A DNA stretch of 64,000 nt, from NCBI GenBank assembly GCA_901456055.1, contig CABDWT010000003.1, positions 5,352 through 69,351 on the forward strand, given 5' to 3'. The DNA is from Phytobacter ursingii (GTDB lineage Bacteria > Pseudomonadota > Gammaproteobacteria > Enterobacterales > Enterobacteriaceae). The position numbers and the translations under genes are program-made. Below the pieces are notes generated by a model. It was given only the letters and a program-made list of their open reading frames with translations. It did no database searches and was not told where the DNA came from. Shown in pieces: positions 1 through 60,571 of the stretch (the first letter of the stretch is position 1; every line of letters starts with the position of its first letter).

Positions 1-570
1 GCTTACGACGGGCGCAACGCTACCGCGCAAGGGCTTATTAACTTCTTCACGCAAAACAATGTGTTTGCTGATGTGGTTGATTTTGAACACAACGTCGTAC
101 CTTCGAAGAGCAGTAAGTGGGTCAGCTTTAAGGCGCTGAGCGATGCGACGGATAAATTCTCTACCGTTGCCGGGAAGAAACTGGAGATGGGCGACATCGA
201 GTCAATCTGGGAAGCATGGCTGCTGCTGACCGCTATTGATGATATTCGCCACGGCACAAGCCAGGGTGATTACAAGCGCGATTACCTCCAGTTCTACGCA
301 GTGATGATTAATGCCTTTGGCTACGCCGTGCAGCGCCTGCTCGCTGCCAATTCCGTGCGTGATGTCGTTGCGATGATTGAGTCGCTCGCACTGGCCACCG
401 GGACCGCAGAACGTGAGGATTTCTTCCTGATGACGAACTGGGCCGGTATTTGCGTGAATACCGATAAGGATAAACCAACAGTCATCGCGAACGTGGCCGC
501 GCAGAAAGCAGCAGCAGAACGCCTGACGTTGGTATTCACCCAGAAGAACCTGAACGTGGGAGGGGAGTGA
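1..570 (+). CDS. phage-related hypothetical protein, 3' portion (frame open from window start)
   Basis: Frame 1 is open from nt 1 to the stop at 570. It is translationally coupled (ATGA overlap) to the downstream HNH gene. The context is phage-like. No family was recognised. Confidence 0.4.
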   Translation, partial: AYDGRNATAQGLINFFTQNNVFADVVDFEHNVVPSKSSKWVSFKALSDATDKFSTVAGKKLEMGDIESIWEAWLLLTAIDDIRHGTSQGDYKRDYLQFYAVMINAFGYAVQRLLAANSVRDVVAMIESLALATGTAEREDFFLMTNWAGICVNTDKDKPTVIANVAAQKAAAERLTLVFTQKNLNVGGE

Positions 571-992
571 AGATGGCGCTCACTAAAAAACAACGCGCTG
601 AATTGCGCATGAAGTTTGGCGGTCACTGTGCGTATTGCGGCTGCGAACTGAAAGAGAAAGGTTGGCACGCTGACCACGTGGAGGCCGTTTACCGTAAATG
701 GGAGTTCGGCCCGCGCCGAGCTGATGGTACTCGTAGGACCGTAGCCACCGGGGAACATGAGCGCCCGGAGAATGACACCGTGGATAACCTGTTTCCAGCT
801 TGCGTGCCGTGCAACCTGTTCAAGTCTGTCGATTCGATTAAGCAATTCCGCGAGCGTATTGCTACCCAGGTTGATGTTACCCGGCGAGCATCGCGGAGTT
901 ACCGCACTGCTGAATCATTTGGGCTTGTCCAACCAACTAATGTGCCTGTTGTGTTCTGGTTTGAGAAATATCAACAGCAGGAGGAAGCATGA
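567..992 (+). CDS. HNH endonuclease (phage-type)
   Basis: Cys-rich HNH signature is present (CAYCGC...HADH...PACVPCN). It overlaps the neighbouring genes by 4 nt on each side. Confidence 0.6.
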   Translation: MKMALTKKQRAELRMKFGGHCAYCGCELKEKGWHADHVEAVYRKWEFGPRRADGTRRTVATGEHERPENDTVDNLFPACVPCNLFKSVDSIKQFRERIATQVDVTRRASRSYRTAESFGLVQPTNVPVVFWFEKYQQQEEA

Positions 993-1294
993 CAGCACAA
1001 TTACCGTGCAGAGAGCGCCTTGAGAAAATCGCATCGTGGCGTGAAATGTATGGCGCTGGTCACAACGTAATGTTGCCAGCCGAAGAAGCTGAGTCATTGG
1101 CCCGCTTCGCATTGGAGCACGCCGCCGAGATTGAACAACTGAAACGGCAAGTGATTCATGTGGTCATGCCAATGATGGTGCCACCAGCAGTAATACAGGA
1201 TATGAAAGCGCGGCGTATCGAACATGCGCTTTGCCTCAAATGTAACGAAGGTGCTCGCGGGGGTTGCTCCGCATGTGCCTACAATGAGCGATAA
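989..1294 (+). CDS. hypothetical phage protein
   Basis: 101-aa ORF, coupled to the HNH gene, with a C-terminal Cys cluster. Confidence 0.35.
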   Translation: MTAQLPCRERLEKIASWREMYGAGHNVMLPAEEAESLARFALEHAAEIEQLKRQVIHVVMPMMVPPAVIQDMKARRIEHALCLKCNEGARGGCSACAYNER

Positions 1295-1323
1295 CCGGGT
1301 GCAGCCGGTGATGTGGAGAGACT

Positions 1324-1596
1324 ATGAATACACTTTTTCTTCTTATGGCTGAGTTTAATACTCCTGACATCGAGCTTTCTGCTGTGTGCCAGAAATATTT
1401 CGGGATGAGTCCTTCCACTGCAGAAGCTAAGGCTAATGCATGTCAGTTACCTGTTCCAACATACCGTATAGGTGCATCCCAAAAAGCTAAGCGCTGTATC
1501 AACATTCAGGATCTTGCGGAGCATATCGACCGTATGAGGGTTCAAGGGCGAGAGGAATGGGAAAGAGTAAGGACATTAAAACAAAAAAATGATTAA
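1324..1596 (+). CDS. PrtN-like (pyocin activator family) DNA-binding protein
   Basis: The N-terminal MNTLFLLMA... and ...ASQKA..I.IQDLAEHIDRMR pattern resembles the PrtN / phage transcriptional activator family. Confidence 0.45.
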   Translation: MNTLFLLMAEFNTPDIELSAVCQKYFGMSPSTAEAKANACQLPVPTYRIGASQKAKRCINIQDLAEHIDRMRVQGREEWERVRTLKQKND

Positions 1597-1603
1597 CTCC
1601 ATC

Positions 1604-1631
1604 AACCCGCTTGAATAGGCGGGTTAGTTTT
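1604..1631 (+). terminator. rho-independent terminator (convergent gene ends)
   Basis: Hairpin AACCCGC-ttgaatag-GCGGGTT followed by AGTTTT. It overlaps the stop of the convergent YafO-like gene. Confidence 0.4.
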
Positions 1632-2058
1632 CATCTTTAAATTTCTGGGCAATCCGAGCTAAATACCCCATCACCTTAGGATCTCTGGCCATCCCGTGGC
1701 CATTGGGATGCATTATCGCAATAAGAGAATATTTATTCTCATATAGCTCACCTTGGACATAGGCTAGACAAGCATCTTTTTCAGGATCGCCTTTTTTGCA
1801 TACTCTATCTGGTTGAGGGCGATTCTCTGGGAATACATCAGGAGGAAGGCTAATGTGTATATGCATCAACCCAGCTTTAAAAGCACTATGCGGCTGAGTA
1901 TACGCAACATCCCTACCGAAATACCGAGGCAACTGCCCCGTTGCTTTATACCTTATGAAATCATCAATGATAGAAGCCTCTAACTCCGGATAGTCGATAA
2001 AAACTTTATCAAAAAATTCAGCTTTAGTTGCTGGATTTATAGAGGCTTCTATTGGCAC
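1624..2058 (-). CDS. YafO-like type II toxin (ribosome-dependent mRNA interferase family)
   Basis: Motifs recalled from E. coli YafO are present: FI.YK..G.LP..FGRD..Y, HIHI, AYVQGE, LIAIM.P..H..ARD. There is a probable GTG start. It lies 16 bp downstream of the partner ORF. Confidence 0.5.
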   Translation of the reverse strand: MPIEASINPATKAEFFDKVFIDYPELEASIIDDFIRYKATGQLPRYFGRDVAYTQPHSAFKAGLMHIHISLPPDVFPENRPQPDRVCKKGDPEKDACLAYVQGELYENKYSLIAIMHPNGHGMARDPKVMGYLARIAQKFKDEN

Positions 2059-2074
2059 GGTAGTCCGTTACGAG

Positions 2075-2617
2075 TTAGTGGAATTGCATTAATTTTATCT
2101 TATCTGACGTGTAATTTGCCAGAGCAGCAATTCCATTAAGGTCAGCTTTACCATCGAATAAAACAGCGTCTTTAAACAGACTCTTCGTATAATCATTAAG
2201 GCGAGTTACTGACGAACGAGCTTTAGCGATATGACGCCAATAAACCTTCAATTCCGACTTAACAAAATCAGGAATAGGAAAGTCAATGGTACGTTTAACT
2301 TCTTCTTCAAACGCCCGTAAAAACATTTCACACGCTTCTGTGATAGTGTCAGAACTATTTTGATTCACAAAGTTACGAGCTTCATCGCTATCAAGTCCAA
2401 TCAAACTGACATAATAATTGTCAGCAGAAACTGTTAGCTTTTTAAGGATTTCTTTGCCTTCTTCTAATCTACGAGAAAACTCCTCAACAGAAGGAGTAGC
2501 TTTCAAAGGTTCTGCAACGACGGGTGCGGGCTGGATAATGAAGTCCTGAGCCATAGCAGCAGGACAAGCCAGAGGCCCGCACAATGCAGCAAAAGTAATG
2601 GCGTTAAACGGATTCAT
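2075..2617 (-). CDS. hypothetical protein with signal-peptide-like N-terminus, upstream partner of the YafO-like toxin
   Basis: GAGG ribosome-binding site sits 6 nt before the ATG of MNPFNAITFAALCGPLACPAAMA|QD. The protein is 180 aa with no recognised family. It sits in the antitoxin position but is twice the YafN size. Confidence 0.4.
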   Translation of the reverse strand: MNPFNAITFAALCGPLACPAAMAQDFIIQPAPVVAEPLKATPSVEEFSRRLEEGKEILKKLTVSADNYYVSLIGLDSDEARNFVNQNSSDTITEACEMFLRAFEEEVKRTIDFPIPDFVKSELKVYWRHIAKARSSVTRLNDYTKSLFKDAVLFDGKADLNGIAALANYTSDKIKLMQFH

Positions 2618-2974
2618 GGCAACCTCGATAATCATTTCACTTACTCAAAAATAGCCAGAGCTATTGTAAGCGAAGTCTATAACCGGAGTTATTTTTGGTC
2701 AATCAGATAAGACGGCAAATGGTGCTTTACCAAAAGATTCGAATAGATAAAACGAGAATTCAGGTTCCCAATAGAACCCCAAGAATGAAATAACTTATTG
2801 AGTTTAATAATCAATACATCCTATCGAGCATCGGCGCGATGGAGAAACGGTGAGCAGGATAGGCAGCAGACTGATTTTCTGGCGACATGGCGAATAAATG
2901 AGCTTTAGGTAAAAAAGGGGCGCTACTATAGCACAGAGAATCGACGCCGGGCAGCGAGGACATTTGCCTGACCA

Positions 2975-3005
2975 CAAAGAAAAACCGGAGGCGCAAGGCC
3001 TCCGG
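2975..3005 (-). terminator. rho-independent terminator of OMP gene
   Basis: Hairpin CCGGAGGC-gcaa-GCCTCCGG is followed by a T-tract on the minus strand, 8 nt after the stop. Confidence 0.5.
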
Positions 3006-3012
3006 TTGTGCA

Positions 3013-4350
3013 TCAGAATGTCATGCTCAACTGTGCACCGGCCCCCCAGGTTTTGTTCTCACCGACTGACCCCATTAAATCAACGTGCACACGGTTAAAT
3101 GGCGCAAAACCGACACCGCCTGTGAAGACATTGCTTTCATCACCTTTCACATCAGCACGGTAGCCAGCACGCACCGCCAGCCAACTCAGAGGACGAACCT
3201 CCGCACCGACGCCAACGAACTGTGAATTTTTCTCGCTCTTAAACCCTTTGGTTTCCGTCAGATCACCGTCAGCACTCAGTGTCAGCAGATCGTTATGCCA
3301 CGCCGCTCCAGCGGTAACCAATGGGCTGATCTGGTAGGTATCTTTGTAGTTTTTAACTTCGCCGGTTCTGCCATTGGTGATAAAAACATCTTTGGTGTCG
3401 ATATTACGCGAGACCAGGTTTTGTCCACTCAGACCGAGGGTGACGTTATCTGTTAAATCTGCCGCCAGGCCAACATCAATGTTAAAGCCCGTGTCATCCT
3501 TGCGGTATTTACTGTTGTTCCATTCGTTTTTGTCGTAATCATAAATCGACGTGGTGTAGTTATAGATCCATGACTTTTGCAGTTTTGGCGTTACGCCGAC
3601 GGAAAGAGGAACGCCGCCCACGTCGAATTGATGCGCCATTGCGATACCAAAGTCCGTAATGATAGCCGCACGACCTGATGCCGTGGAGTTAAGATTTTTT
3701 GTGATCTCGTCCGAGCCATTAGGTGAGACAACAGCACCGAGGGCAACTCCCGTGGCGACGGTATCACTGTTCTGGATGCTACGAAGGTAGGTGATATCGT
3801 TTTGATCAATATTCGAACTCACACGGGCATGCGCATAGCCTTTAGTCACAAAGGCAACAGATAACACATCGTTAGGAATAGTGACGGCGATACCGGCTCC
3901 GGCATTCGCACTCGCGGTTTTGCCATCAAGATAATCAAGCGAATCCGCAAGATCTTTTGCCGCCATCTGGAACTGATCGACAGTCCCAACGGGGTTAAGC
4001 AGCACTTCGCGCAGGGTGAGATTGTCAACGATGTCTTTGTAATAATCGATTTTATCACTGATATCATTAATTTCATCGCGCAGGTTATCCTCATCGGTTA
4101 TCTGCGCACCAACAGTCGGTAAGATGACCGTAACATTGTCTTCCGGTTTCGCCTTTGCCAGCAACGCCGGGTTAATGAATGCACCACTGCCGTAATTTGC
4201 GGAGGCAACACCTGTCCCCCCCATTGCATCATTACGTGCCTCTGACCAGGTATTTGCCGCTCCGGCTTGATTTGCCACGAAAAAGGAGACAGCGATAGCG
4301 ACCACCGAAAGTTTAAGATTGTTTTTCACAGTTATGCGTCTCGTAATCAA
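3013..4350 (-). CDS. outer-membrane beta-barrel protein, TraF-like family
   Basis: It has a signal peptide (…ANQAGA|AN) and an alternating beta-strand pattern. The C-terminus ends ...QLSMTF with a terminal Phe. Sequence is similar to chromosomal proteins commonly annotated as conjugal transfer protein TraF-like OMPs. Confidence 0.55.
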   Translation of the reverse strand: MITRRITVKNNLKLSVVAIAVSFFVANQAGAANTWSEARNDAMGGTGVASANYGSGAFINPALLAKAKPEDNVTVILPTVGAQITDEDNLRDEINDISDKIDYYKDIVDNLTLREVLLNPVGTVDQFQMAAKDLADSLDYLDGKTASANAGAGIAVTIPNDVLSVAFVTKGYAHARVSSNIDQNDITYLRSIQNSDTVATGVALGAVVSPNGSDEITKNLNSTASGRAAIITDFGIAMAHQFDVGGVPLSVGVTPKLQKSWIYNYTTSIYDYDKNEWNNSKYRKDDTGFNIDVGLAADLTDNVTLGLSGQNLVSRNIDTKDVFITNGRTGEVKNYKDTYQISPLVTAGAAWHNDLLTLSADGDLTETKGFKSEKNSQFVGVGAEVRPLSWLAVRAGYRADVKGDESNVFTGGVGFAPFNRVHVDLMGSVGENKTWGAGAQLSMTF

Positions 4351-4601
4351 ATGAGTTTATGACCCTGCTAGTTGTGACATGGACAGGGTGGCTCTATTGC
4401 TGCGAATAACATCCAAAAAACATCCTATTTCTACGGAATGTAATAAAACGTTACAGAAGATGTTGTTATATGAAGTGACCATCAATATTTATAGAAGACA
4501 CATGGCGATTGCGAAAGGTGAAGGCGCGGTCGCGATCTCGGCGTTTAGTACAGAACATGATAAAGTGGGGGCTTATGTCGCCCTTTCATGAGAGAACGCC
4601 T

Positions 4602-5117
4602 ATGGATAAGTCCACTTCGCAAGAGATGCTCGCGCAGGCCGAAAAACTGTGTGTGCAACGCAATGTGCGCCTGACTCCCCAGCGCCTCGAAGTGTTACGC
4701 CTGATGAGTCTGCAACAGGGGGCCATCAGCGCCTACGACCTGCTCGATCTCCTGCGTGAGGCAGAGCCTCAGGCCAAACCCCCAACTGTCTATCGCGCGC
4801 TGGATTTTCTTTTAGAACAAGGCTTTGTGCATAAAGTGGAGTCCACGAATAGCTATGTGCTTTGCCATCTTTTCGATCAACCGACGCACACCTCTGCGAT
4901 GTTTATCTGCGATCGTTGCGGCGTGGTAAAAGAAGAGCAGGCGGAAGGCGTGGAAGATATCATGCACGCACTGGCGGCAAAACGCGGTTTTGCGCTGCGC
5001 CATAACGTCATTGAAGCACATGGATTATGCGCTGATTGCGCCGAGGTTGAAGCGTGCCGACATCCCGGCGAATGCCATCATGACCACACGATTCAGTTGA
5101 AAAAAAAATCGCGCTAG
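4602..5117 (+). CDS. zur: zinc uptake regulator Zur
   Basis: Near-identical to E. coli Zur (MDKSTSQEMLAQAEKL...RNVRLTPQRLEVLRLM). Confidence 0.9.
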   Translation: MDKSTSQEMLAQAEKLCVQRNVRLTPQRLEVLRLMSLQQGAISAYDLLDLLREAEPQAKPPTVYRALDFLLEQGFVHKVESTNSYVLCHLFDQPTHTSAMFICDRCGVVKEEQAEGVEDIMHALAAKRGFALRHNVIEAHGLCADCAEVEACRHPGECHHDHTIQLKKKSR

Positions 5118-5131
5118 TCGCGATTTTTCTC
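5100..5131 (+). terminator. terminator after zur
   Basis: A-tract, then AATCGCG-ctagt-CGCGATT, then TTTCT. It may act bidirectionally. Confidence 0.4.
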
Positions 5132-5225
5132 TTTTAAACGGACAAATAAATTGAGGGTGGTACATCCATGTACCGTTCGGGCAGGGTAGCCATTGAGGGT
5201 CTACACATTGAGGGGAATGTGAAGG

Positions 5226-5435
5226 CTACCAGCGGTAATCATTCCGCGTTTCCCAGTCCACGACTTCTTTTTCTGCCTGATCTTTGGCGTAGCCGTAACG
5301 TTCCTGAATTTTACCAACCAGTTGGTCACGTTTACCTTCGATGATGGTCATATCATCGTCAGTCAATTTACCCCACTGTTCCTTCGCTTTACCTTTGAAC
5401 TGTTTCCAGTTGCCGCTGACTTCGTCTTTATTCAT
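5226..5435 (-). CDS. yjbJ: CsbD-family stress protein YjbJ
   Basis: MNKDEVSGNWKQFKGKAKEQWGKLTDDDMT... matches E. coli YjbJ. Confidence 0.85.
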   Translation of the reverse strand: MNKDEVSGNWKQFKGKAKEQWGKLTDDDMTIIEGKRDQLVGKIQERYGYAKDQAEKEVVDWETRNDYRW

Positions 5436-5694
5436 CGTCATTTCCTCATCGTTGGTCATGAACAGCGTTATTCCTTTCGTTACGCTCTAAATATCCTGAA
5501 CGTGATTATTATTGTAGTTAAGGATAGCGACCATGAATCTTTATTCGGAATTTTTAACCATCAGAAAGGAAATTGCCGGAGAAATATGCAGACCAAACCT
5601 AAGCGAGATCAGGAGGATAACCGAGAAGTTAAAGCTTTGTCAGGAAAGGAAAGCAACCGTGACAGCGGATCTGCCGCCACGGCTCAGAAGGGTA

Positions 5695-6309
5695 TTACAG
5701 CCATTCACCATTGCGGATAACGCCAACCGCCAGGCCTTCAATGGTGAAGTTGTGCTCACGCAGGTTAACCACGATTGGGGAAAACTCACTGTTTTCAGGC
5801 AGTAGCTGCACCGTATTACCCTGTTTTTTCAGGCGCTTGACCGTGACTTCATCGTCAATACGGGCAACAACAACCTGCCCGTTACGAACATCCTGAGTTT
5901 TATGGACAGCCAGCAGGTCGCCATCCATGATGCCGATATCTTTCATCGACATACCGCTTACGCGGAGCAGGAAGTCAGCGTTAGGTTTGAAGAGAGAAGG
6001 ATCGACCTGATAGTGTCCTTCGATATGCTGTTGCGCCAACAAAGGTTCGCCAGCAGCGACACGGCCGATAAGCGGCAGCCCGATATCCTCTTCTTCTTCA
6101 AGCAACAGACGAATACCACGAGACGCACCCGATACAATCTCAATAACGCCCTTACGCGCAAGCGCTTTCAGGTGTTCCTCTGCCGCGTTTGGGGAACGGA
6201 ACCCCAACTGTTGCGCGATCTCCGCACGCGTCGGCGGCATACCTGTCTGGTTGATTCGATCGCGAATGAGATCGAACACCTCTTGCTGCCTGGCCGTTAA
6301 AGCTTTCAT
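5695..6309 (-). CDS. lexA: SOS repressor LexA
   Basis: About 97 % identical to E. coli LexA. Confidence 0.95.
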
Positions 6310-6317
6310 TCCGCCCC

Positions 6318-6354
6318 CTGGGTGTATATACAGTTATGCTGTGAGTATATACAG
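6318..6354 (-). promoter_or_regulatory. two LexA (SOS) boxes in lexA promoter
   Basis: On the minus strand: CTGTATATACTCACAG and CTGTATATACACCCAG. Both match the CTGT-N8-ACAG consensus and the spacing seen in E. coli lexA. Confidence 0.85.
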
Positions 6355-6417
6355 TTAAAGGTGATTTTGAAACCAAAATTAAGCAAAAAGCGCGGACTTA
6401 ACGCATTTCTGGAAGCC

Positions 6418-6786
6418 TTATCGAAAATAGCCCCACAGCAGAGAAAACCAGGTAAACAGTGCCAGAAGAATGGCCATTAATACTGCCGCAGACCCCATGT
6501 CCTTCGCACGTCCTGAGAGTTCATGAAATTCAGACCCAATACGGTCAACCACCGCTTCAATCGCACTATTGAGGATTTCCACTATCATCACCAATACAAC
6601 AGAACCAATCAGCAGAACACGCGTAATAGCGTCAACATCCACAAAAGACGCAATGATGATAGCAATAATGACCGCAACACCTTCCTGACGAAAAGCCGCT
6701 TCGTTAATCCACGCTGCGCGCACCCCTTTCCATGAATAGCCTGCCGCTTTAATGATGCGGGTAATTCCAGTGGTATTGTTGGCCAT
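6418..6786 (-). CDS. dgkA: diacylglycerol kinase
   Basis: MANNTTGITRIIKAAGYSWKG... matches E. coli DgkA (122 aa). Confidence 0.9.
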   Translation of the reverse strand: MANNTTGITRIIKAAGYSWKGVRAAWINEAAFRQEGVAVIIAIIIASFVDVDAITRVLLIGSVVLVMIVEILNSAIEAVVDRIGSEFHELSGRAKDMGSAAVLMAILLALFTWFSLLWGYFR

Positions 6787-6916
6787 GAAAAACAACCTTT
6801 TTATGTAATGAACGTCAATGTCTATGTAAGCTTATAGAGGTAGAAAAGAAATTCTGCGGACTTTCTGATATTCTTGCCGCGCAATGGCATTATTAACCAG
6901 AGGCTTTACATCGTTT

Positions 6917-9337
6917 ATGTCCGGCTGGCCACGAATTTACTACAAATTACTAAATTTACCATTAAGCGTCCTGGTAAAAAGCAAGTCTATCCCGGCGGAA
7001 CCCGCCCAGGAATTAGGACTCGATACGTCACGCCCTATTATGTACGTTTTGCCTTATAATTCGAAGGCAGACTTGCTTACCTTGCGCGCTCAGTGTCTGG
7101 CACACGATTTGCCCGACCCCCTCGAACCGCTTGAAATCGATGGAGCGGAGCTGCCGCGTTATATCTTTATTCACGGCGGACCGCGCGTCTTTACCTGGTA
7201 CACGCCTAAAGAAGAGTCGATCAAGCTGTTCCATGACTACCTCGATCTGCACCGCAGCCATCCCGATCTGGATGTTCAGATGGTGCCTGTATCGATGATG
7301 TTCGGCCGTTCTCCAGGTCGCGAAAAGGGTGAAGTCAACCCGCCGCTGCGTATGCTAAACGGTATTCAGAAATTTTTCGCGATCTCATGGCTTGGCCGCG
7401 ATAGCTTTGTGCGTTTCTCGCCGCCGGTTTCGCTGCGTCGTATGGCAACCGAGCACGGGACAGACAAAACCATTGCGCAAAAACTGGCACGCGTAGCGCG
7501 TATGCACTTCGCCCGTCAGCGCCTGGCCGCAGTGGGGCCGCGTTTGCCTGCCCGTCAGGACCTGTTTAATAAGCTGCTCTCCTCCAAAGCCATCGCCCGT
7601 GCCGTCGAAGACGAAGCGCGCAGCAAGAAAATCTCCCATGATAAAGCACAACAAAACGCAATTGCGCTGATGGAAGAGATTGCGGCGAACTTCTCGTATG
7701 AGATGATCCGTCTGTCAGACCGTATCCTCAGCTTTACCTGGAACCGTCTGTATCAGGGCATTAATGTGCATAACGCGGAACGTGTTCGTCAGCTCGCCCA
7801 TGATGGTCATGAAATTGTCTATGTGCCCTGCCATCGCAGTCATATGGACTATTTGTTGCTCTCCTACGTGCTCTATCATCAGGGGCTGGTACCACCGCAT
7901 ATCGCTGCCGGCATCAACCTGAACTTCTGGCCGGCGGGTCCCATTTTCCGTCGTCTGGGCGCGTTCTTTATTCGCCGTACGTTTAAAGGCAATAAGCTCT
8001 ATTCGACGGTTTTCCGCGAGTATCTGGGTGAATTGTTTAACCGCGGCTATTCAGTGGAATACTTTGTGGAAGGTGGGCGTTCTCGTACCGGCCGTCTGTT
8101 GGATCCGAAGACCGGCACGCTCTCGATGACGATTCAGGCCATGCTTCGTGGGGGCACGCGTCCGATCACGCTGGTGCCCATCTACATTGGCTATGAGCAC
8201 GTCATGGAAGTGGGCACCTACGCCAAAGAGCTGCGCGGCGCGACGAAAGAGAAAGAAGGTTTTGCCCAGATGGTACGCGGTTTAAGCAAGCTGCGTAATC
8301 TCGGTCAGGGCTACGTCAACTTTGGCGAGCCCATTCCGCTGATGAACTATCTGAATCATCGCGTACCAGAATGGCGCGAGTCCATCGATCCCATCGAGGC
8401 TGTCCGTCCTGCCTGGCTGACGCCAACGGTGAATGCCATTGCTGCTGATCTGATGGTGCGTATTAATAATGCCGGTGCGGCAAACGCCATGAACCTCTGT
8501 TGTACTGCGCTTCTGGCCTCACGTCAGCGTTCACTGACCCGCGAACAGCTCACCGAGCAACTGAACTGTTACCTCAACCTGATGCGCAATGTGCCCTATG
8601 CTGCCGACACAACGGTGCCCACCGTCAGTGCGGACGCGCTTATTGAGCACGCCCTGCAGATGAACAAGTTTGAGGTAGAGAAAGACACGATTGGCGACAT
8701 CATCATTCTGCCGCGCGAGCAGGCGGTGCTGATGACGTACTATCGCAACAACATTGCGCATATGCTGATGTTGCCATCGCTGATGGCGGCCATTATTACC
8801 CAGCATCGTCATATCTCTCAGGACGAAATGCTGCGCCATGTTGAACTGCTCTACCCGATGCTGAAAGCCGAGCTGTTCTTGCGCTGGGAAAAAGAGGAAC
8901 TGGCCGGCGTACTGGAGAGCCTCGCACAGGAATTACTGCGCCAGGGGCTGATCACCATGAAGGATGGCCAGCTCTATATCAATCCGGTACATTCCCGTAC
9001 TCTGCAATTGCTGGCGGCTGGCGCGCGCGAAACGCTGCAACGTTATGCCATCACGTTCTGGTTGCTGAGCGCCAATCCGGCGATGAACCGCAGTACACTG
9101 GAGAAAGAGAGCCGTACGCTGGCGCAACGTCTGTCAGTCCTGCACGGCATCAATGCGCCGGAATTCTTCGACAAGGCGGTTTTCAGTACTCTGGTGCTGA
9201 CGCTGCGTGATGAAGGGTATATCAGCGATACCGGCGATGCCGAGCCCGAGCAGACACTGGCGGTGTATCAGCTGTTAGCTGAGCTGATTACTTCTGATGT
9301 GCGTTTGACTATCGAGAGCGCAACGCAGGCGGAGTGA
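6917..9337 (+). CDS. plsB: glycerol-3-phosphate acyltransferase
   Basis: [17 protein letters not shown]... is about 90 % identical to E. coli PlsB. It is divergent from dgkA. Confidence 0.95.
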
Positions 9338-25294: not shown

Positions 25295-25616
25295 ATCAAT
25301 TTCCCTTCATTGAATGAATGGAGATTTGCCTGAAAATAAACAGGCGAGAACGAGTATACACAACTAAAGCAGGCTATTTGCCGAATGGGAAACGCAGCGG
25401 GAAGTTTTAAGAAAATTGGATAAAATCGATAAATTGCAGATATTAATTTAAAATAAAAATTTTGTATTTCATACAGTTACAAATATTTCAGCAATAAGGA
25501 AGTATACGTAACATCTGAAAATAACACTGAGGAATTAACTGGATATTCTGTTTTTTCAGAATAACCTCATAATGAAGAATTATGTCGACGACGGAACAAC
25601 AAGAATTATCCGATAA

Positions 25617-25644
25617 TAAAATGCCGACGTTATGTCGGCATTTT
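25617..25644 (-). terminator. pgi terminator (symmetric hairpin, bidirectional)
   Basis: AAAATGCCGACG-ttat-GTCGGCATTTT. Confidence 0.55.
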
Positions 25645-25682
25645 AATTTACCTATTTCGCTCACCCTTATCGCTGAACGATA

Positions 25683-27552: not shown

Positions 27553-27880
27553 GGGCGCTACCTGCGTGCGCGCGGGCCAGAAGAGGAGCGTTACCCAGGT
27601 ACGGTGTTGGAAGAGCCAATCTGAAGAAAACACCTGAGGGGGAGTAACGCCGAGGTGGTGAATTGCATGGCGGCATTCATCATCGGCTACAGGGGCTGAA
27701 TCCCTTGAGTTGTCACCAGAAACGTTCGCAGTCGGGCGTTTCACAAGTGGTGGAGCACTTCTGGGTGTAATCGTAGTTGTCTTTTGCTCTGCGCCTACCC
27801 CTTTTCGCTCTTCCCTTGTGCCATGGCTGAATAATTTTGTCTGACGTTATACGCCAGGCTTCCCTGACACGAGGTTATAA
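27553..27880 (+). ncRNA. lysine riboswitch (L-box) in lysC leader
   Basis: GGCCAGAAGAGGAGCGTTACCCAGGTACGGTGTTGGAAGAGCCA...CACCTGAGGGGG...GGGCTGAATCCC...GTGGTGGAGCACTTCTGGGTG is colinear with the E. coli lysC leader aptamer. It lies immediately 5' of the lysC ATG. Confidence 0.85.
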
Positions 27881-29410: not shown

Positions 29411-30202
29411 CTACATCTGCCCCATGACCGTCCGGAACAGCAACGCGTCCAACGTTCTGACGTCGCCTTCCCGGCTTTCCGGTAACGTGGGGGGAAGGGT
29501 TCCCCTTTCGATCTCGGCCGCGATAAACGCGTGTAAGCGTGGCAGACGCGCGCCGTATTGCGCTTCCCCTGCACACTGCTTACGTGCCAGTAAATCATCG
29601 ATTTCCAGACGCAATTGCGCATCCAGTTCGCTTCCGGCCAACAGTTCGGCAAAGCGCATCGGCGGTACGCCTTTTCCCGCTTCCACCCAACGCACCGCCA
29701 GTAACGGGCGCAGCACATAAAAGTATTTCTTTAACCGCACCTCATCACCCTGCAAATACTGATGGAAGTTTCTGCGGGCCATGGAGTAGTAATGCCAGCG
29801 CGCCCGCACGGCAGAAAACCATTTCGGCATCTCCGCCTTAAGCGCACCGACGGTGGCATCGTCTTGCTGATAGACCACTGGCGAATCCAGCCACTCGATC
29901 AGCGTTGGGTTTGCGCTTTTTAGCAAACCTAACGCTTTACGCCACTCCCAGCCGCTCACGTCCAGCTCATCATCGATGGGCAGTTCAATCACATCACGCG
30001 GCGCCTCTACCCGCAGATACCACTGCGGCGGATGCACATATAAAAAACGCACATCATAGTCGCTGTCCGGTGAGGCAAAACCCCAGCCACGGCTGCCGGA
30101 TTCGCAGGCATACAGCACTCTGACGCCGTAACGCTGCTCCACCTCTTTTAATTGCTGCCGCACGCGTTCACGCATTGCGGCATCCACTCCGCTATCAGCC
30201 AT
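29411..30202 (-). CDS. Pol-beta-superfamily nucleotidyltransferase (RtcB-associated)
   Basis: NTase signature GSRGWGFASPDSDYDVRF (GS-x9-D-x-D) near the N-terminus. The protein is 263 aa. Its start lies 5 bp downstream of the rtcB stop. Confidence 0.65.
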   Translation of the reverse strand: MADSGVDAAMRERVRQQLKEVEQRYGVRVLYACESGSRGWGFASPDSDYDVRFLYVHPPQWYLRVEAPRDVIELPIDDELDVSGWEWRKALGLLKSANPTLIEWLDSPVVYQQDDATVGALKAEMPKWFSAVRARWHYYSMARRNFHQYLQGDEVRLKKYFYVLRPLLAVRWVEAGKGVPPMRFAELLAGSELDAQLRLEIDDLLARKQCAGEAQYGARLPRLHAFIAAEIERGTLPPTLPESREGDVRTLDALLFRTVMGQM

Positions 30203-30207
30203 CTCAT

Positions 30208-31434
30208 TTATCCTTTTACACAGACCACCTGACGTAAGGTGTGGACAATCTCCACCAGCGACGCCTGCGCCGCCATCACCGCGTCGATATCTTTATAGGC
30301 CATCGGAATTTCATCAATAACGTCGCTGTCTTTACGACACTCAACGTGAGCGGTCGCCCGAATCTGGTCATCAACCGTAAAGCGCTTTTTCGCCGCCGTA
30401 CGACTCATCGTGCGCCCTGCGCCGTGGCTACAAGAGCAGAAGCTCTCTTCATTTCCCAATCCACGTACGATAAAGCTTTTCGCCCCCATCGAACCGGGAA
30501 TAATCCCCATCTGGCCCTTCTGCGCCGAAACCGCGCCTTTACGCGTCACCAGCACCTCTTCGCCAAAATGGGTCTCTTTTTGCACGTAGTTATGGTGGCA
30601 ATTCACCGCCTCCTGCTGGGTCAGAAACGGTTTTGTCACGATACGCGACAGCGCCGCCAGCACGCGCGACATCATCACTTCCCGGTTATGACGGGCAAAG
30701 TCCTGGGCCCACGACACGGCTTCCATATAGTCGTCATAGTGCTTACTCCCCTCCTTGAAATAGGCCAGGTTTTTATCCGGCAGGTTGGCAATATGCTGCT
30801 GCATGTCCTGTTGGGCCAGCGTGATAAACAGCGTACCAATGGCATTACCCACGCCGCGCGAACCGCTATGTAACATCACCCATACACGTTGCTGCTCATC
30901 CAGGCAGACCTCAATAAAATGGTTGCCCGTACCCAGCGTTCCCAGGTGCTGATGATTATTGGTTTTCAATAGCTGCGGATAGTTATCCGTCAAGCGCTTA
31001 AACCGTGCCGCCAGCATTGTCCAGTGGTTATCCACTTCCTGCGGGGGCGTTTCCCACGCCCCTTTATCCCGGACGGAACGTGTGCTGGTACGCCCATGCG
31101 GCACCGCCTGTTCGATTGCGCTGCGAAGCCCGCTCAGGTTATCCGGTAAATCGCTTGCCACCAGCGAGGTGCGCACGGCGATCATCCCACAACCAATATC
31201 CACGCCAACCGCCGCCGGGATAATGGCCCCTTTGGTCGGGATCACGCTGCCGATGGTGGAACCTTTACCGAGATGTACATCGGGCATTACCGCCAGATGC
31301 TGAAAAATAAACGGCATCTTCGCGGTATTCTGCAACTGTTCACGCGCCTCTGGTTCTACCGGCACCCCGTGAGTCCACATTTTTATCGGCGCACTGTTCT
31401 GCGCCGTCAGCAGTTGAAATTCGTTATGCTGCAT
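30208..31434 (-). CDS. rtcB: RNA-splicing ligase RtcB (3'-phosphate/5'-OH RNA ligase)
   Basis: 408 aa with long identical blocks to E. coli RtcB (PFIFQH.AVMPDVHLGKGSTIGSVIPTKGAIIPAAVGVDIGCGM..., GNEESFCSCSHGAGR, CRKD..VIDEIPMAYKDIDAVMAAQ). Confidence 0.9.
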   Translation of the reverse strand: MQHNEFQLLTAQNSAPIKMWTHGVPVEPEAREQLQNTAKMPFIFQHLAVMPDVHLGKGSTIGSVIPTKGAIIPAAVGVDIGCGMIAVRTSLVASDLPDNLSGLRSAIEQAVPHGRTSTRSVRDKGAWETPPQEVDNHWTMLAARFKRLTDNYPQLLKTNNHQHLGTLGTGNHFIEVCLDEQQRVWVMLHSGSRGVGNAIGTLFITLAQQDMQQHIANLPDKNLAYFKEGSKHYDDYMEAVSWAQDFARHNREVMMSRVLAALSRIVTKPFLTQQEAVNCHHNYVQKETHFGEEVLVTRKGAVSAQKGQMGIIPGSMGAKSFIVRGLGNEESFCSCSHGAGRTMSRTAAKKRFTVDDQIRATAHVECRKDSDVIDEIPMAYKDIDAVMAAQASLVEIVHTLRQVVCVKG

Positions 31435-31438
31435 TTGA

Positions 31439-32563
31439 TTATCCTTTAATACTCACCAGTCCATTCAGGACGTTATCGAGGCCACCAAATACCGAGATTT
31501 TATCGATACGTTCAGCCACTTTTTCTAGCGTTTCCAGCTCTTTTAAGCGCAACGCTACCGGGTTGTTTTCCATGACTTTCGCGGTATTAAGCAATGAGCG
31601 GGTTGCCGCTGTCTCTTCACGCCGACGAATCACGTTCGCCTGCGCCGATTTTTCCGCTTCCACCAGCTTCGCCAGAATGGTTTTCATATCGCCCGGCAAC
31701 ACGATATCCCGCACACCCAGCGACGCGACATCCATGCCAAAGGGAGCCATACGTGTTTTTACCTGAGCACTGACTACCTCATCGATGATTTGCTTGTCTT
31801 CAAGCAGTTCGTCCAGCGTCCGGGTTCCCACCGCTTCACGCAGGGCAAACTGCAGTTCGCGATACAGGTGATCCAACGGTTTGGTTAACTGGCTGAATGC
31901 CTGTAACACATCGCTGTATTGCCAGTTCGCCCCCAGGTTGATGCGCAGGTTCACTTTGTCTTTGGTCAGAATTTCCTGGCCGGACACTTCCATCAATTGC
32001 AAACGCGTATCGACAACGTCTGCATCAACCAGATGGTTCACTTTCCAGTAAGCGCTCAATCCCGGCGGCAACAAAGGTTGTGTTACACCATCGATTTTTA
32101 CTACACCGACGTGCCATGCCGCGACATTAACCGCCAGTATGGCATCCCGGCCTTTAACAGCTGCGCCGCTACGTGGCTGCAATACGGCATTCATGATGCT
32201 CTCAGGTACACGCACATCCCGGGTATCGATCAACACCACGCTCAGGCTACCGTCCTGCCAGAACAGGCGGCGTGACGCTGGCGGGATAATTTCCACCAGG
32301 ATGCCGTCACGGTAGAGCGCAGCCACCTCATGCCCGGCGGTATCGACGCTCAGGCAGTACGCCTCGACCCACTCAGGTCTGAAACGGCGCAGATAATTCG
32401 CCAGCTCTGCCGACACATCGCTGCCGTTGAGCTCAACGACCATGACCTCTTGCTTATTAAACCAGGAAAGACGGTGCTCTCCTGCCTCAAGAATTTTTGT
32501 GTAATCGCCTGCTTTTACCAGCAGGCCCACTTGTCCCTGGCGGAGAGTGATTTTTTTATTCAT
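31439..32563 (-). CDS. SPFH/band-7 domain protein (soluble, no N-terminal TM)
   Basis: The C-terminal half has stomatin/HflC-like SPFH features (…DIVLPGDMKTILAKLVEAEKSAQANVIRRREETAATRSLLNTAKVMENNPVALRLKELETLEKVAERI…). An AAGGAAG ribosome-binding site is present. It is the first gene of the rtcB operon. Confidence 0.65.
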   Translation of the reverse strand: MNKKITLRQGQVGLLVKAGDYTKILEAGEHRLSWFNKQEVMVVELNGSDVSAELANYLRRFRPEWVEAYCLSVDTAGHEVAALYRDGILVEIIPPASRRLFWQDGSLSVVLIDTRDVRVPESIMNAVLQPRSGAAVKGRDAILAVNVAAWHVGVVKIDGVTQPLLPPGLSAYWKVNHLVDADVVDTRLQLMEVSGQEILTKDKVNLRINLGANWQYSDVLQAFSQLTKPLDHLYRELQFALREAVGTRTLDELLEDKQIIDEVVSAQVKTRMAPFGMDVASLGVRDIVLPGDMKTILAKLVEAEKSAQANVIRRREETAATRSLLNTAKVMENNPVALRLKELETLEKVAERIDKISVFGGLDNVLNGLVSIKG

Positions 32564-32858
32564 TTGATCTTCCTTAAATTTTCACGTACCGGCGCGAATG
32601 CAGGATCGGAGCCGGAGGGAAACAGACCACCACTGCCAGCCTGTTTTGCCTGCGACCCGGAGCCCTTATCGGCGCCGGTTCATTGCCATCGCTAACCACC
32701 CGACGGCGCGTTTACGAACACAACCAGTGTTCACCGGAAAGGTGAGTTGGGAATCGAACCCTCATGGTGTCTCTCGGCTGACAGAACGCCCCGCGGATAA
32801 CGTCTTACCGTTCCGGGTGCGCTGGCGGGGCATAATCCCCTGCGTGCTCAACGTCGTG
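32564..32858 (-). ncRNA. candidate structured leader / Y-RNA-like ncRNA with tRNA T-loop-like motif
   Basis: The approximately 295-nt transcript 5' region runs between the sigma-54 promoter and the SPFH start codon. The minus strand contains GGGTTCGATTCCC (32749-32761), a tRNA T-arm mimic. GC-rich long-range stems are present (ATGCCCCGC…GCGGGGCGT and TCACC-tttcc-GGTGA). Confidence 0.3.
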
Positions 32859-32870
32859 ACATATCAGGTA

Positions 32871-32888
32871 TTGCCAGAAGCGTGCCAG
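32871..32888 (-). promoter_or_regulatory. sigma-54 (-24/-12) promoter of SPFH-rtcB-NTase operon
   Basis: The minus strand reads CTGGCACGCTTCTGGCAAT, which gives GG and GC 12 nt apart and fits TGGCAC-N5-TTGCA with one mismatch. It is oriented toward rtcB and is divergent from rtcR. Confidence 0.55.
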
Positions 32889-33021
32889 GTTGGAAGAAGT
32901 GGAAGATTAAATTTTAATTTACTGATATTTAAGAAATTAAATTTTCATCTCTTTGTTCACTTGCTGGTATCCCGGTAATTTTTTTATATTTATTTATCGT
33001 TATTTATCTTTAAGGATAAAA

Positions 33022-34602
33022 ATGCAAAAGCGCAGAGTGGTGATAGGCGTACTGGGAACAGTGTTGGATAAACGCGGCAAGCGGGCAAATCGCTTTCGTA
33101 AATGGCGGCCAACCGTTGGGTTATGCCAGCAGCCGGACTTTCCGGTTGATCGGCTGGAGTTGCTCCATCAGCCGCGCGATGAAGGCATGGCCCAACAGCT
33201 GGCGGAAGATATCGCACTGCTTTCACCGCAAACCACCGTACGCCCTCATCCGGTAAATATTCGCGATCCGTGGGATTTTGAAGAGGTGTATGCCGCGTTC
33301 CTCGATTTCGCCAGCCACTATGATTTCGATACAGAAAACGAAGAGTATCTGGTGCATATCACCACCGGCACGCACGTGGCGCAGATCTGCTGGTTTTTGC
33401 TGACAGAGGCTCGCTATCTGCCCGCCAGCCTGCTGCAAACCAGCCCGGCGCCGAAAGGGGCTTCGGAGGAAGATATTGCCGCCGGCGTTTGCTCGGTTAT
33501 CGATCTCGATTTAAGCCGCTATGCAACCTTAACCAGCCGCTTTCAACGCGAACAGCAACAGTCGGTTTCGCTGCTCAAAGCCGGTATCGATACGCGCAAC
33601 GCAACGTTTAATAAGCTTATCGATCAAATTGAACGGGTAGCCTTGCGCTCCACGGCACCGATTCTGTTGACCGGGCCCACCGGGGCGGGTAAATCCTTCC
33701 TGGCAAAACGTATTTTCCAGCTACGCCAGTCGCGCCATCGTGTGGCGGGTAAACTGGTGGCGGTAAACTGCGCCACGTTGCGAGGCGATAACGCTATGTC
33801 GACATTGTTTGGCCATGTGAAAGGGGCGTTTACCGGGGCGCTAACGCCACGAATGGGGCTGCTGCGCGAAGCCGATGGCGGGGTGCTTTTTCTGGATGAA
33901 ATTGCGGAGCTGGGCCTGGATGAGCAAGCGATGCTGCTGAAAGCCATTGAAGAAAAAACGTTCTTCCCATTTGGCTCGGATAAAGAGGTCCACAGTGATT
34001 TTCAGCTTATTGCCGGTACACACCGCGACATGCGCCAGTGGGTGGAGGAAGGGAAATTCCGTGAGGATCTCTATGCGCGTATCAATATGTGGACGTTTGC
34101 CCTGCCGGGGCTTGCTGAAAGACGGGAAGATATTGCGCCGAATATTGAATTCGAACTCCAGCGCTTTAGCGCCGAAGCCCAGACTCAGATCCGTTTTGAC
34201 AAAGACGCGCGTGAACGTTATCTGGCATTTGCCTGTTCCGGACAGGCACAGTGGCGCGGTAACTTTCGTGAACTGAGTTCCTCGATTGCCCGTATGGCGA
34301 CGCTGGCCGAACAGGGGCGTATCACTCTGGCTAATGCCGAAGAAGAAATTGCCCGTTTGCAGCACGCCTGGCAGACACCATCTTCACTCCCCCCTTTAGC
34401 AGAGGAAATCGATCTGTTTGAGCAACGTCAACTGGAAACGGTACTGGAGGTATGTCGCCGTCACCACTCTCTTTCCGATGCCGGGCGCGAACTGTTTGCC
34501 GTTTCGCGCTTGAAAAAAGCCAGGCCGAATGATGCTGACCGTCTGCGTAAATACCTCGCGCGCTTCGGGCTGAGCTGGGAAAACATCCGCCCTGCTACAT
34601 GA
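33022..34602 (+). CDS. rtcR: sigma-54-dependent transcriptional activator RtcR (CARF + AAA+ + HTH)
   Basis: Colinear with E. coli RtcR. Shared blocks include KWRPT..LCQQ, HITTGTHVAQICWFLL.EARYLPA, Walker A GPTGAGKSFLA, GAFTGA, LFLDEI.ELG.DEQAMLLKAIEEKTF.PFGSD and a C-terminal DADRLRKYLARFGL.WE. Confidence 0.85.
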   Translation: MQKRRVVIGVLGTVLDKRGKRANRFRKWRPTVGLCQQPDFPVDRLELLHQPRDEGMAQQLAEDIALLSPQTTVRPHPVNIRDPWDFEEVYAAFLDFASHYDFDTENEEYLVHITTGTHVAQICWFLLTEARYLPASLLQTSPAPKGASEEDIAAGVCSVIDLDLSRYATLTSRFQREQQQSVSLLKAGIDTRNATFNKLIDQIERVALRSTAPILLTGPTGAGKSFLAKRIFQLRQSRHRVAGKLVAVNCATLRGDNAMSTLFGHVKGAFTGALTPRMGLLREADGGVLFLDEIAELGLDEQAMLLKAIEEKTFFPFGSDKEVHSDFQLIAGTHRDMRQWVEEGKFREDLYARINMWTFALPGLAERREDIAPNIEFELQRFSAEAQTQIRFDKDARERYLAFACSGQAQWRGNFRELSSSIARMATLAEQGRITLANAEEEIARLQHAWQTPSSLPPLAEEIDLFEQRQLETVLEVCRRHHSLSDAGRELFAVSRLKKARPNDADRLRKYLARFGLSWENIRPAT

Positions 34603-55279: not shown

Positions 55280-55399
55280 ATGCCTGGCAGTTCCCTACTC
55301 TCACATGGGGAGACCCCACACTACCATCGGCGCTACGGCGTTTCACTTCTGAGTTCGGCATGGGGTCAGGTGGGACCACCGCGCTAAAGCCGCCAGGCA
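55280..55399 (-). rRNA. rrf: 5S ribosomal RNA
   Basis: Reverse complement matches E. coli 5S (TGCCTGGCGGC...GCCAGGCAT), 120 nt. Confidence 0.95.
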
Positions 55400-55592
55400 A
55401 ATTCTGTGCTCTGTCCTGTGTCTTTTGTGCTGATACTGCGTTGGCTGCTCTCGTAAAGTCAGTCACATACCTCAGTATGCTCCTTCCTTTCCTTCGCTGG
55501 CCGCCTTGTCTCAGCGCAAAATCCTTCGGACTCTGAATCTAAGCTGAATATTGTTCGTCTTCTCAATTCCGCCAAAACATCTTCGGCGTTGT

Positions 55593-58494
<2,902 letters not shown>

Positions 58495-58700
58495 TCACAA
58501 CCCGAAGATGTTTCTTTCGATTCATCCTCGCGCTGTAAAAATTTGAGAGACTCGAACACACCGTCATCTGTTCTTATTACGGAGAACAGACACTGTGTGT
58601 CGTTTCAATTTTCAGCTTGATCCAGATTTTTAAAGAGCAAAACTTCGCAGTGCACCTTTTCAGGTTCACTCTGAAGTTTTCTTGTGTTCGCAGTAAATGA

Positions 58701-58776
58701 TGGTGGAGCTATGCGGGATCGAACCGCAGACCTCCTGCGTGCAAAGCAGGCGCTCTCCCAGCTGAGCTATAGCCCC
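58701..58776 (-). tRNA. tRNA-Ala (UGC), 16S-23S spacer
   Basis: Reverse complement equals GGGGCTATAGCTCAGCTGGGAGAGCGCCTGCTTTGCACGCAGGAGGTCTGCGGTTCGATCCCGCATAGCTCCACCA. Confidence 0.95.
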
Positions 58777-58882
58777 ATCGTGGTCAAATCTCGTTAACCG
58801 TAATTTTCCTGAGACAAGGCGTGGAATAACGAAGCATACTCAGGTATGCGGGTTATTTCACAACGCAGTATTCAGGAAAATT

Positions 58883-58959
<77 letters not shown>

Positions 58960-59029
58960 GCAGAGATTTTTTACTGCTGTATTTCATCAGACAATCTGTG
59001 TGAGCACTGCAAAGGCAGGTTCTTTAAGG

Positions 59030-60571
<1,542 letters not shown>

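Follow-up and report, generated by a model that had tools for sequence, protein, structure and literature searches.

A conserved leader RNA with a reduced tRNA-like module, probably of the Band-7-associated class, upstream of the SPFH-RtcB-RlaP operon of Phytobacter ursingii

Why do bacterial RNA-repair operons often carry a tRNA-shaped RNA beside a gene for a scaffold protein? Two cases of this pairing are known, Ro with Y RNA and Band-7 with a leader RNA. The latter class has so far been predicted by computer only; Burroughs and Aravind are said to have made that computer prediction, of a Band-7-associated tRNA-like RNA, in Nucleic Acids Research in 2016. The question is raised here by a 64,000-nt stretch of the Phytobacter ursingii contig CABDWT010000003.1 (hereafter, the window), in which an operon for an SPFH/Band-7 protein, the RNA ligase RtcB and the nucleotidyltransferase RlaP is preceded, on the minus strand, by a leader of about 300 nt, with the gene for the sigma-54 activator RtcR facing away on the other side. 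We consider it probable that this leader is an enterobacterial Band-7-associated tRNA-like RNA that serves the SPFH scaffold as its RNA partner during tRNA repair. The part of this proposal that can be regarded as demonstrated, at the level of sequence, comprises an RtcR/sigma-54-type promoter motif, a conserved fold of ~300 nt, its strand, a tRNA-derived module and an obligatory co-occurrence with SPFH.

The transcript is predicted to begin at the following element:

32872..32887, minus strand (read 32887-32872): sigma-54 -24/-12 promoter, TGGCACGCTTCTGGCA, the sole TGGCAC-N5-TKGCW match in the 64-kb window.

Its -24 GG and -12 GC are correctly spaced and adjoin the divergent rtcR gene, and in 76 of 80 homologous loci TGGCAC-N5-T[TGC]GC occupies the corresponding position. 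These loci (individually denoted by L numbers) were fetched with the SPFH protein; besides Enterobacterales they represent Neisseriaceae, Lampropedia and Thorsellia. A preliminary description of this DNA had proposed a minus-strand sigma-54 element, a start near 32858 and a leader of ~295 nt. The element is borne out by its uniqueness, conservation and position, and recalculation from the -12 GC at 32874/32873 moves the predicted start by only 3 nt, to near 32861, giving a leader of ~298 nt before the ATG at 32563. No sigma-70-like promoter was detected in 32400-33100, nor any terminator better than chance in the interval from the sigma-54 site to the SPFH gene, so that nothing significant separates the two and the leader should belong to the operon transcript. 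One site that resembles a terminator, at 32737-24, was rejected, being within chance expectation and not conserved. Farther upstream, the AT-rich rtcR/SPFH intergenic segment (32888-33021) contains an inverted repeat of 17 nt (32904-32920 / 32934-32950), and repeats of the TTTATC type lie beside the rtcR start; both are candidate sites for RtcR or IHF.

Is this leader an RNA with a structure of its own? Two alignments were used to answer this, one of 28 sequences (the window and its close relatives) and one of 49 sequences from many genera. RNAalifold, applied to a MAFFT alignment, does not resolve the central part of the leader because hairpin lengths differ there, and false pairs in the promoter DNA were removed. 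Apart from the tRNA-like module, to which we return below, three parts could be delineated:

32777..32852, minus strand: 5′ domain, a three-way junction made of P1 (32852-48 with 32781-77), the P2 hairpin (32840-27) and the long P3 hairpin (32824-32782).

32685..32707, minus strand: middle hairpin GCCGTCG-GGTGGTTAG-CGATGGC, read by eye, with no formal count.

32589..32678, minus strand: 3′ domain, a long irregular hairpin with a variable tip and the conserved internal signature GGCA-RAA ... UUUCCC ... YUUCGY.

Within the alignment of 49 sequences, 93.4% of the cells of the 5′ domain are paired and compensatory changes occur at 25 of its 27 pairs; its covariation score is 0.544, versus at most 0.134 when the partners are slid, a value reached by none of 500 shuffles. 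When the 5′ domain, T arm and 3′ hairpin are considered jointly in the alignment of 28, paired cells amount to 97%, versus at most 54% when slid, with 18 compensatory pairs. Helices 6-8 of the 3′ domain are 92-98% paired, with 11 compensatory pairs, in the same 28 sequences, and the signature of this domain can still be recognised in two Neisseriaceae loci, L074 and L076. The middle hairpin, again by eye, recurs in relatives as a stem of 6-7 bp of differing sequence (GGAGC../..GCTCC, GGGGAT../..ATCCC, GTAACCG/CGGTTAC). Throughout the Enterobacterales loci this stem covaries and carries a conserved loop resembling GCAGUYAR (GCAGTYAR as DNA), the window loop being GGUGGUUAG.

One helix of the preliminary description did not survive comparison: the long-range stem ATGCCCCGC...GCGGGGCGT (GCCCCGC/GCGGGGC) is specific to the window, and the relatives support instead a local GGGG/CCCC hairpin (32840-27) and a separate long hairpin (32824-32782). 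Many G-U pairs of the structure derived from the 28 sequences would be C-A mismatches if read on the other strand; the RNA therefore fits the minus strand only. Nor is the leader coding, because indels of non-multiples of three run through it. Judged by these comparisons, the leader is a real, conserved, structured RNA of ~300 nt on the minus strand.

Between the 5′ domain and the middle hairpin lies the module that resembles a tRNA:

32749..32761, minus strand (read 32761-32749): T-arm mimic GGG-TTCGATT-CCC, GGGTTCGATTCCC, with a stem of only 3 bp in the window.

32731..32745, minus strand: acceptor-like hairpin closed by a loop, TCACC-TTTCC-GGTGA, whose pairing is kept and whose sequence varies in relatives.

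32718..32730, minus strand: GG strand or D-loop-like element, ACAC-TGGTT-GTGT, with A-N-TGG-T conserved and TGG invariant in 28 relatives.

The T arm has a 7-nt loop, TTCRANY, closed by G-C pairs as in tRNA, and GGTTCGATTCC at 32760-32750 is the sole GGTTCGANTCC match in the window, versus 0.06 expected by chance. GGG-TTCGATT-CCC is invariant in the 28 close relatives (the window plus 27 others), with a stem of 3-4 pairs. The exact motif GGTTCRANYCC is found in 76 of the 80 loci, always between the promoter and the SPFH start and 122-168 nt past the promoter. The preliminary description had singled out this T-arm motif and the TCACC-tttcc-GGTGA hairpin (32745-31), and had suggested that structure and T loop be sought in homologous islands; there, compensatory changes were indeed found, the T loop recurs as just stated, and the hairpin covaries (TTCATT/AATGAA, TTTCAT/ATGAAA, TTCACT/AGTGAA, TCACT/AGTGA, ATTCATT/AATGAAT), being deleted in L014. 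The window and its 27 close relatives share one order of parts, namely T arm, closed acceptor-like hairpin and an A-N-TGG-TTGT strand; in the window copy the loop TTTCC closes the acceptor-like stem, and an anticodon arm is missing. A local "D hairpin" (AAC/GTT) was rejected, as it is uncompensated in L025, L026 and L032. It is possible that the TTGT of the GG strand pairs instead with the upstream GAC(A) linker, a pairing that rests on invariant bases.

The absence of a complete cloverleaf, already stated in the preliminary description, is confirmed by dedicated searches. ARAGORN detects no tRNA in this leader or in other Enterobacterales leaders, the only tRNAs of the window being those for Ala and Ile in the rrn operon. 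The Rfam tRNA model (RF00005) gives no match to the window leader at its gathering score or at E<=10, in searches of 701 and 121 nt, and across all Rfam families the same two thresholds yield only noise and a 13-nt T-loop match to tmRNA.

Leaders of other genera come closer to tRNA. They have a canonical 5-bp T arm at the same place, in many covarying versions, and an open acceptor-like stem of 4-7 pairs that covaries as well (GCGAA/TTCGC, GGTG/CACC, TCGAAT/ATTCGA, GTGAT/ATCAC). In this open form, the 5′ acceptor strand is followed by a GG-containing linker and the 3′ strand by an ACC or ACCA tail. The GG strand lies 3-5 nt past the 5′ acceptor strand in both the open and the closed arrangements, and in Superficieibacter (L019) both partners for the 3′ acceptor strand are present, so that this locus carries both arrangements. 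From this we infer that the window form is a circular permutation of the open form. Full cloverleaf pseudo-tRNAs with an ACCA end are found inside the SPFH leaders of Neisseria sp. (L076, 3627-3702) and Lampropedia (L080, 3642-3714), scoring 68.3 and 41.5 bits, respectively, with RF00005; their anticodons are AUU (L076) and UUA (L080), the latter of which would read a stop codon. Ahead of each cloverleaf lies a second T-arm element. A strong resemblance to authentic tRNA is not seen in the window copy; it is seen at the orthologous position in L076 and L080, with intermediate forms consisting of acceptor stem and T arm in other genera.

Which genes does this RNA accompany? Those of the window are as follows:

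31439..32563, minus strand: SPFH/Band-7 (slipin) gene (Pfam Band_7, E = 2.3e-24 over residues 147-317).

30208..31434, minus strand: RtcB RNA ligase gene (Pfam RtcB, E = 1.2e-133).

29411..30202, minus strand: RlaP (PF10127) nucleotidyltransferase gene (Pfam RlaP, E = 1.6e-96).

33022..34602, plus strand: rtcR, divergent sigma-54 activator gene with a CARF-type RtcR domain (Pfam RtcR, E = 4.7e-81; Sigma54_activat, E = 1.4e-49).

32561..32575, minus strand: Shine-Dalgarno sequence AAGGAAG (32575-69) and SPFH ATG (32563-61), both unpaired in the consensus structure.

The operon thus runs SPFH-RtcB-RlaP on the minus strand, opposite to rtcR, the translation of which from the first ATG of its open reading frame begins MQKRRVV.... 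Residues 153-372 of the SPFH protein match the structures of stomatin, QmcA and HflK, and no Pfam family was matched by its N-terminal ~146-151 residues. In Xenorhabdus, some Providencia and Neisseriaceae (L068-L079, L074, L076, ~3956-4580; P0025, 522 residues) the SPFH open reading frames have ~140-150 extra N-terminal residues, which may represent a duplication of this uncharacterised N-terminal domain. The operon (29411-32563) lacks rtcA, and a source of cyclic-phosphate ligands is not visible in the window; in Salmonella, activation of RtcR needs RtcA (PMC7790460). The other known elements of the window are a lysine riboswitch ahead of lysC (27573-27768, plus strand), a match to the small RNA STnc430 (25491-25652, plus strand) and an rrn operon (55282-60571, minus strand) with tRNA-Ile, tRNA-Ala and a StyR-44 match in its spacer.

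The order rtcR, leader, SPFH is conserved across the Enterobacterales loci (76 of 80), with leader lengths of 268-402 nt (median 323; 78 leaders). RtcR, leader and SPFH are the constant parts, and either RtcB or RlaP can be missing. About 25 loci of Citrobacter, Klebsiella, Kluyvera, Brenneria, Lonsdalea and Hafnia lack RtcB and read RtcR-leader-SPFH-RlaP (RtcB-less loci: L009, L012, L016, L018-L020, L022-L024, L028, L031, L032, L034-L041, L045), and the Proteus loci (L048-L064 group) have SPFH-RtcB without RlaP. The label "RtcB operon" does not fit the whole family. Proximity to rsr and rtcB, which the preliminary description had taken as the hallmark of such an RNA, is likewise not what the loci share: the invariant partner gene is that of the SPFH/Band-7 protein, not rsr or even rtcB. 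The more general proposal of that description, that a tRNA mimic is tied to an RtcR-controlled RNA-repair operon, holds, given the conserved T arm, promoter and SPFH-RtcB-RlaP genes.

The association also emerges when the SPFH protein is not the starting point: in two DNA searches of that kind, the leader was recovered only directly upstream of slipin genes, where it is unannotated. One match was in 1 of 5,426 complete Escherichia coli genomes, the other in a Citrobacter freundii record filed as a plasmid. In the former (L001, E. coli O177:H21, NZ_CP016546.1, 6001-9203), the leader, the slipin gene, an RlaP-like gene and an opposite-strand zeta-toxin gene lie between yjbD and lysC, with no rtcR and no rtcB, and the -12 element reads TCGCA. 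The latter (L083, NZ_CP151862.1, filed as a 425-kb plasmid, 1-7171) has rluF, a DUF3811 gene, rtcR, the slipin gene, a nucleotidyltransferase gene and lysC in chromosomal order, and has the look of a chromid or of a piece of a chromosome; beside its rtcR lies a RelE/XRE toxin-antitoxin pair. Because this sole plasmid match is sited among chromosomal housekeeping genes (rluF, lysC), it says nothing on mobility. No SPFH homolog was found in the phage collection.

How might such a leader work? Upon activation of RtcR, sigma-54 RNA polymerase would start near 32861, and the first ~300 nt would fold in three parts: the 5′ three-way junction; a reduced mimic of the tRNA "elbow", in which the T arm and the acceptor-like hairpin are accompanied by a GG strand, which could cap the T loop in the manner of a D loop; and the middle hairpin with the long 3′ hairpin. 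The SPFH-RtcB-RlaP message would continue from the leader in the same transcript. The tRNA-like part may be treated as a tRNA would be, for example by TruB, TrmA, RNase P or 3′ trimming enzymes, and the leader, whole or cut off, could then partner a soluble, stomatin-like SPFH assembly and bring together broken tRNAs or RtcB and RlaP, much as Y RNA does for Ro60. A role in tRNA repair is backed by the known biochemistry of the neighbouring gene products, since the CARF domain of RtcR binds broken tRNAs with a cyclic phosphate (PMC7790460) and RlaP extends cleaved tRNA ends (PMC12776372).

Several observations weigh against this reading. The window copy has a T stem of 3 pairs, no anticodon arm and no NCCA end, and both the tRNA and the YrlA models miss it. 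The fold energy of the single leader sequence is unremarkable (z = -1.06); because single-sequence folding is uninformative here, the structural evidence rests on comparison with relatives. The T loop has been lost, and SPFH kept, in L055, L059 and L077 (with RtcB in all three and RlaP in two), where another hairpin takes its place (L055 and L059) or a deletion has removed it (L077), and so the T loop is not indispensable; in L035 it is a one-base variant. No recognisable RNA-binding domain was found with Pfam in the N-terminal region of the SPFH protein, and its AlphaFold model, computed from a shallow alignment, is too poor for use (mean predicted local distance difference test score, 49.9). 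Reports of expression, processing or binding of the leader RNA were not found in the literature for any organism. Finally, the leader is physically joined to the mRNA, which fits a cis-acting role equally well.

A purely cis-acting 5′ untranslated region, controlling the stability, processing or translation of the SPFH-RtcB-RlaP mRNA with no role as a free RNA, is an alternative that we judge unlikely. Such a leader might act by binding a protein such as RtcR, RtcB or SPFH, or through cleavage by RNase P or RNase E. Its contiguity with the mRNA, uninterrupted by a terminator or second promoter, the end of the 3′ domain ~14 nt before the Shine-Dalgarno sequence and the retention of the leader even where RtcB or RlaP has been lost all agree with this view. 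Yet the Shine-Dalgarno sequence and ATG are left unpaired by the consensus fold, no terminator/antiterminator pair is seen, ~300 nt, in three domains that covary independently, would be a large size for a simple untranslated region, and the complete tRNA-like genes with ACCA ends in relatives suggest released RNAs. Quite unlikely, in our estimate, is a role as decoy or sensor substrate, in which the RNA would vie with real tRNAs for a ribotoxin, or would itself be cut or nicked and thereby generate or sequester the cyclic-phosphate tRNA fragments that the RtcR CARF domain binds as ligand, in either case providing feedback on the operon. Regulation of the operon by nicked tRNAs was proposed in a 2023 abstract (PMC10159003), the pseudo-tRNAs of Neisseria and Lampropedia carry anticodon loops with the unnatural anticodons AUU and UUA, and Hughes et al. 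suggested that YrlA's tRNA-like domain might inhibit an anticodon nuclease. However, the anticodon arm, the usual target of ribotoxins, is absent from the window and from all Enterobacterales forms, and the operon lacks an rtcA gene, whose product would make cyclic ends.

The preliminary description had also called the leader Y-RNA/YrlA-like. The likeness stands as regards the order of modules, since T arm, closed acceptor-like stem-loop and GG element follow one another as in YrlA; membership of the family does not. It is very improbable that the leader is a true YrlA-family Y RNA working with a Ro60/Rsr protein encoded elsewhere, even though YrlA occasionally adjoins Band-7 genes, according to a preprint (bioRxiv 10.1101/312249), and the data contradict it. 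A search with the Rfam YrlA and tRNA models, as had been suggested, gave no match at E<=10: the YrlA model (RF02553) missed the leader in both the 701-nt and the 121-nt searches and gave none at the gathering score in 16 homologous loci, although the copy upstream of a Ro-like gene in mycobacteriophage Bxz1, used as a positive control, was found (32.5 bits, E = 2e-4). The Rsr-binding motif GNCGAAN0-1G is absent from the window and from 77 of 78 leaders, and tblastn with the Ro-like protein of Bxz1, a distant phage query, revealed no Ro/Rsr homolog in 80-81 loci of ~9 kb each. The canonical YrlA D arm, GCUCA..GGUAGAGC, is absent from the window, which has only the conserved A-N-TGG-T strand. 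Least credible of all, and hardly worth entertaining, is a chance match or a functionless relic of a tRNA gene, for example the remnant of an integration site at the edge of an island. The locus does behave like an insert next to lysC, and 3′ halves of tRNAs are common island scars; the comparative data nevertheless contradict this view, for the motif keeps a fixed place inside a transcribed leader in 76 of 80 loci, covarying helices flank it, its T stem and acceptor partner covary, and a match was expected by chance only 0.06 times per window.

The preferred reading, an RNA partner for the SPFH scaffold, admits a bolder version that we consider unlikely as a whole. In it, the invariant core would consist of RtcR, the ~300-nt three-domain RNA and a soluble stomatin-like protein, and the RNA-SPFH particle, not the ligase, would be the functional heart of the system, perhaps a cage-like ribonucleoprotein (loosely comparable to Ro-Y RNA or vaults) that captures or senses broken tRNAs through the elbow mimic. 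The elbow would have been circularly permuted during enterobacterial evolution, from the open acceptor through a stage with both forms, as in L019, to the closed form of the window, and its YrlA-like topology would be convergent.

If the leader is merely an untranslated region, the finding is of local interest only. In any case, a class known from prediction has gained a covariation-supported, strand-specific RNA of ~300 nt, and the persistence of RNA, SPFH and RtcR without RtcB directs attention to the RNA-SPFH pair. Carriers include Citrobacter, Klebsiella, Enterobacter, Proteus, Providencia, Erwinia and one E. coli lineage, which are experimentally tractable organisms. The class is absent from Rfam, and the leader is unannotated in every annotated record examined. 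We found no report of an RNA upstream of Pseudomonas aeruginosa PA4582, and papers on the rtc locus of that species, which has the same SPFH gene, mention none. Possibly new are the architecture in three domains, its support by covariation, the permuted form and a core independent of RtcB.

How, then, does the leader compare with known RNAs? With tRNA and acceptor-T minihelices it shares the consensus T loop UUCGAUU with a closure of the G53-C61 type, and its relatives add an acceptor stem, a tail reading ACC(A) and a GG with the potential for elbow contacts. It differs in that the window copy fails ARAGORN and the Rfam tRNA model and has no D stem or anticodon arm; nothing suggests aminoacylation. 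The E. coli tufB operon is transcribed as a tRNA-mRNA co-transcript. As in transcripts of that type, protein genes share one transcript with a tRNA-shaped unit upstream of them, suggesting separation by RNase P or RNase E, but in the present case that unit only mimics a tRNA instead of working as one and is placed under stress-specific sigma-54 control.

In YrlA, in turn, the V, T, acceptor-like and D stem-loops come after a GNCGAAN0-1G Rsr site, and the RNA is encoded beside rsr, within ~4 kb and on the same strand (Chen et al. 2014, PMC4201824). The permuted succession of T arm and acceptor-like stem-loop is common to both RNAs, with a D-like GG strand in the window where YrlA has its D element, as are co-transcription in an RtcR/sigma-54 RNA-repair operon and a proposed role as RNA cofactor of a scaffold protein. 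The window RNA, in contrast, lacks a sequence or model match, the Rsr motif, a canonical D arm and an rsr gene, has SPFH as its partner gene, is ~3 times longer and is joined to the mRNA. The window element is YrlA-like in layout and is not a member of the YrlA family.

The closest counterpart is the class predicted by Burroughs and Aravind in 2016, in which, as the summary in a citing preprint has it, a Band-7 protein is accompanied beside RtcB by an unvalidated tRNA-like non-coding RNA termed b7a-tRNA (bioRxiv 10.1101/312249); the term was not found in the other literature searched. Both consist of a non-coding tRNA-like element beside a Band-7/SPFH gene in an RtcB-type repair operon under RtcR, and the homologous leaders of Neisseria and Lampropedia are full cloverleaf pseudo-tRNAs. 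The window copy differs from b7a-tRNA as the preprint summarises it in not being "strongly tRNA-like", as it has a 3-bp T stem, a loop-closed acceptor, a bare GG strand and neither anticodon arm nor CCA, and it forms part of a ~300-nt leader in which two more domains covary. The better label for the leader is Band-7-associated tRNA-like RNA, a member of a known, unvalidated class that the preprint's description matches.

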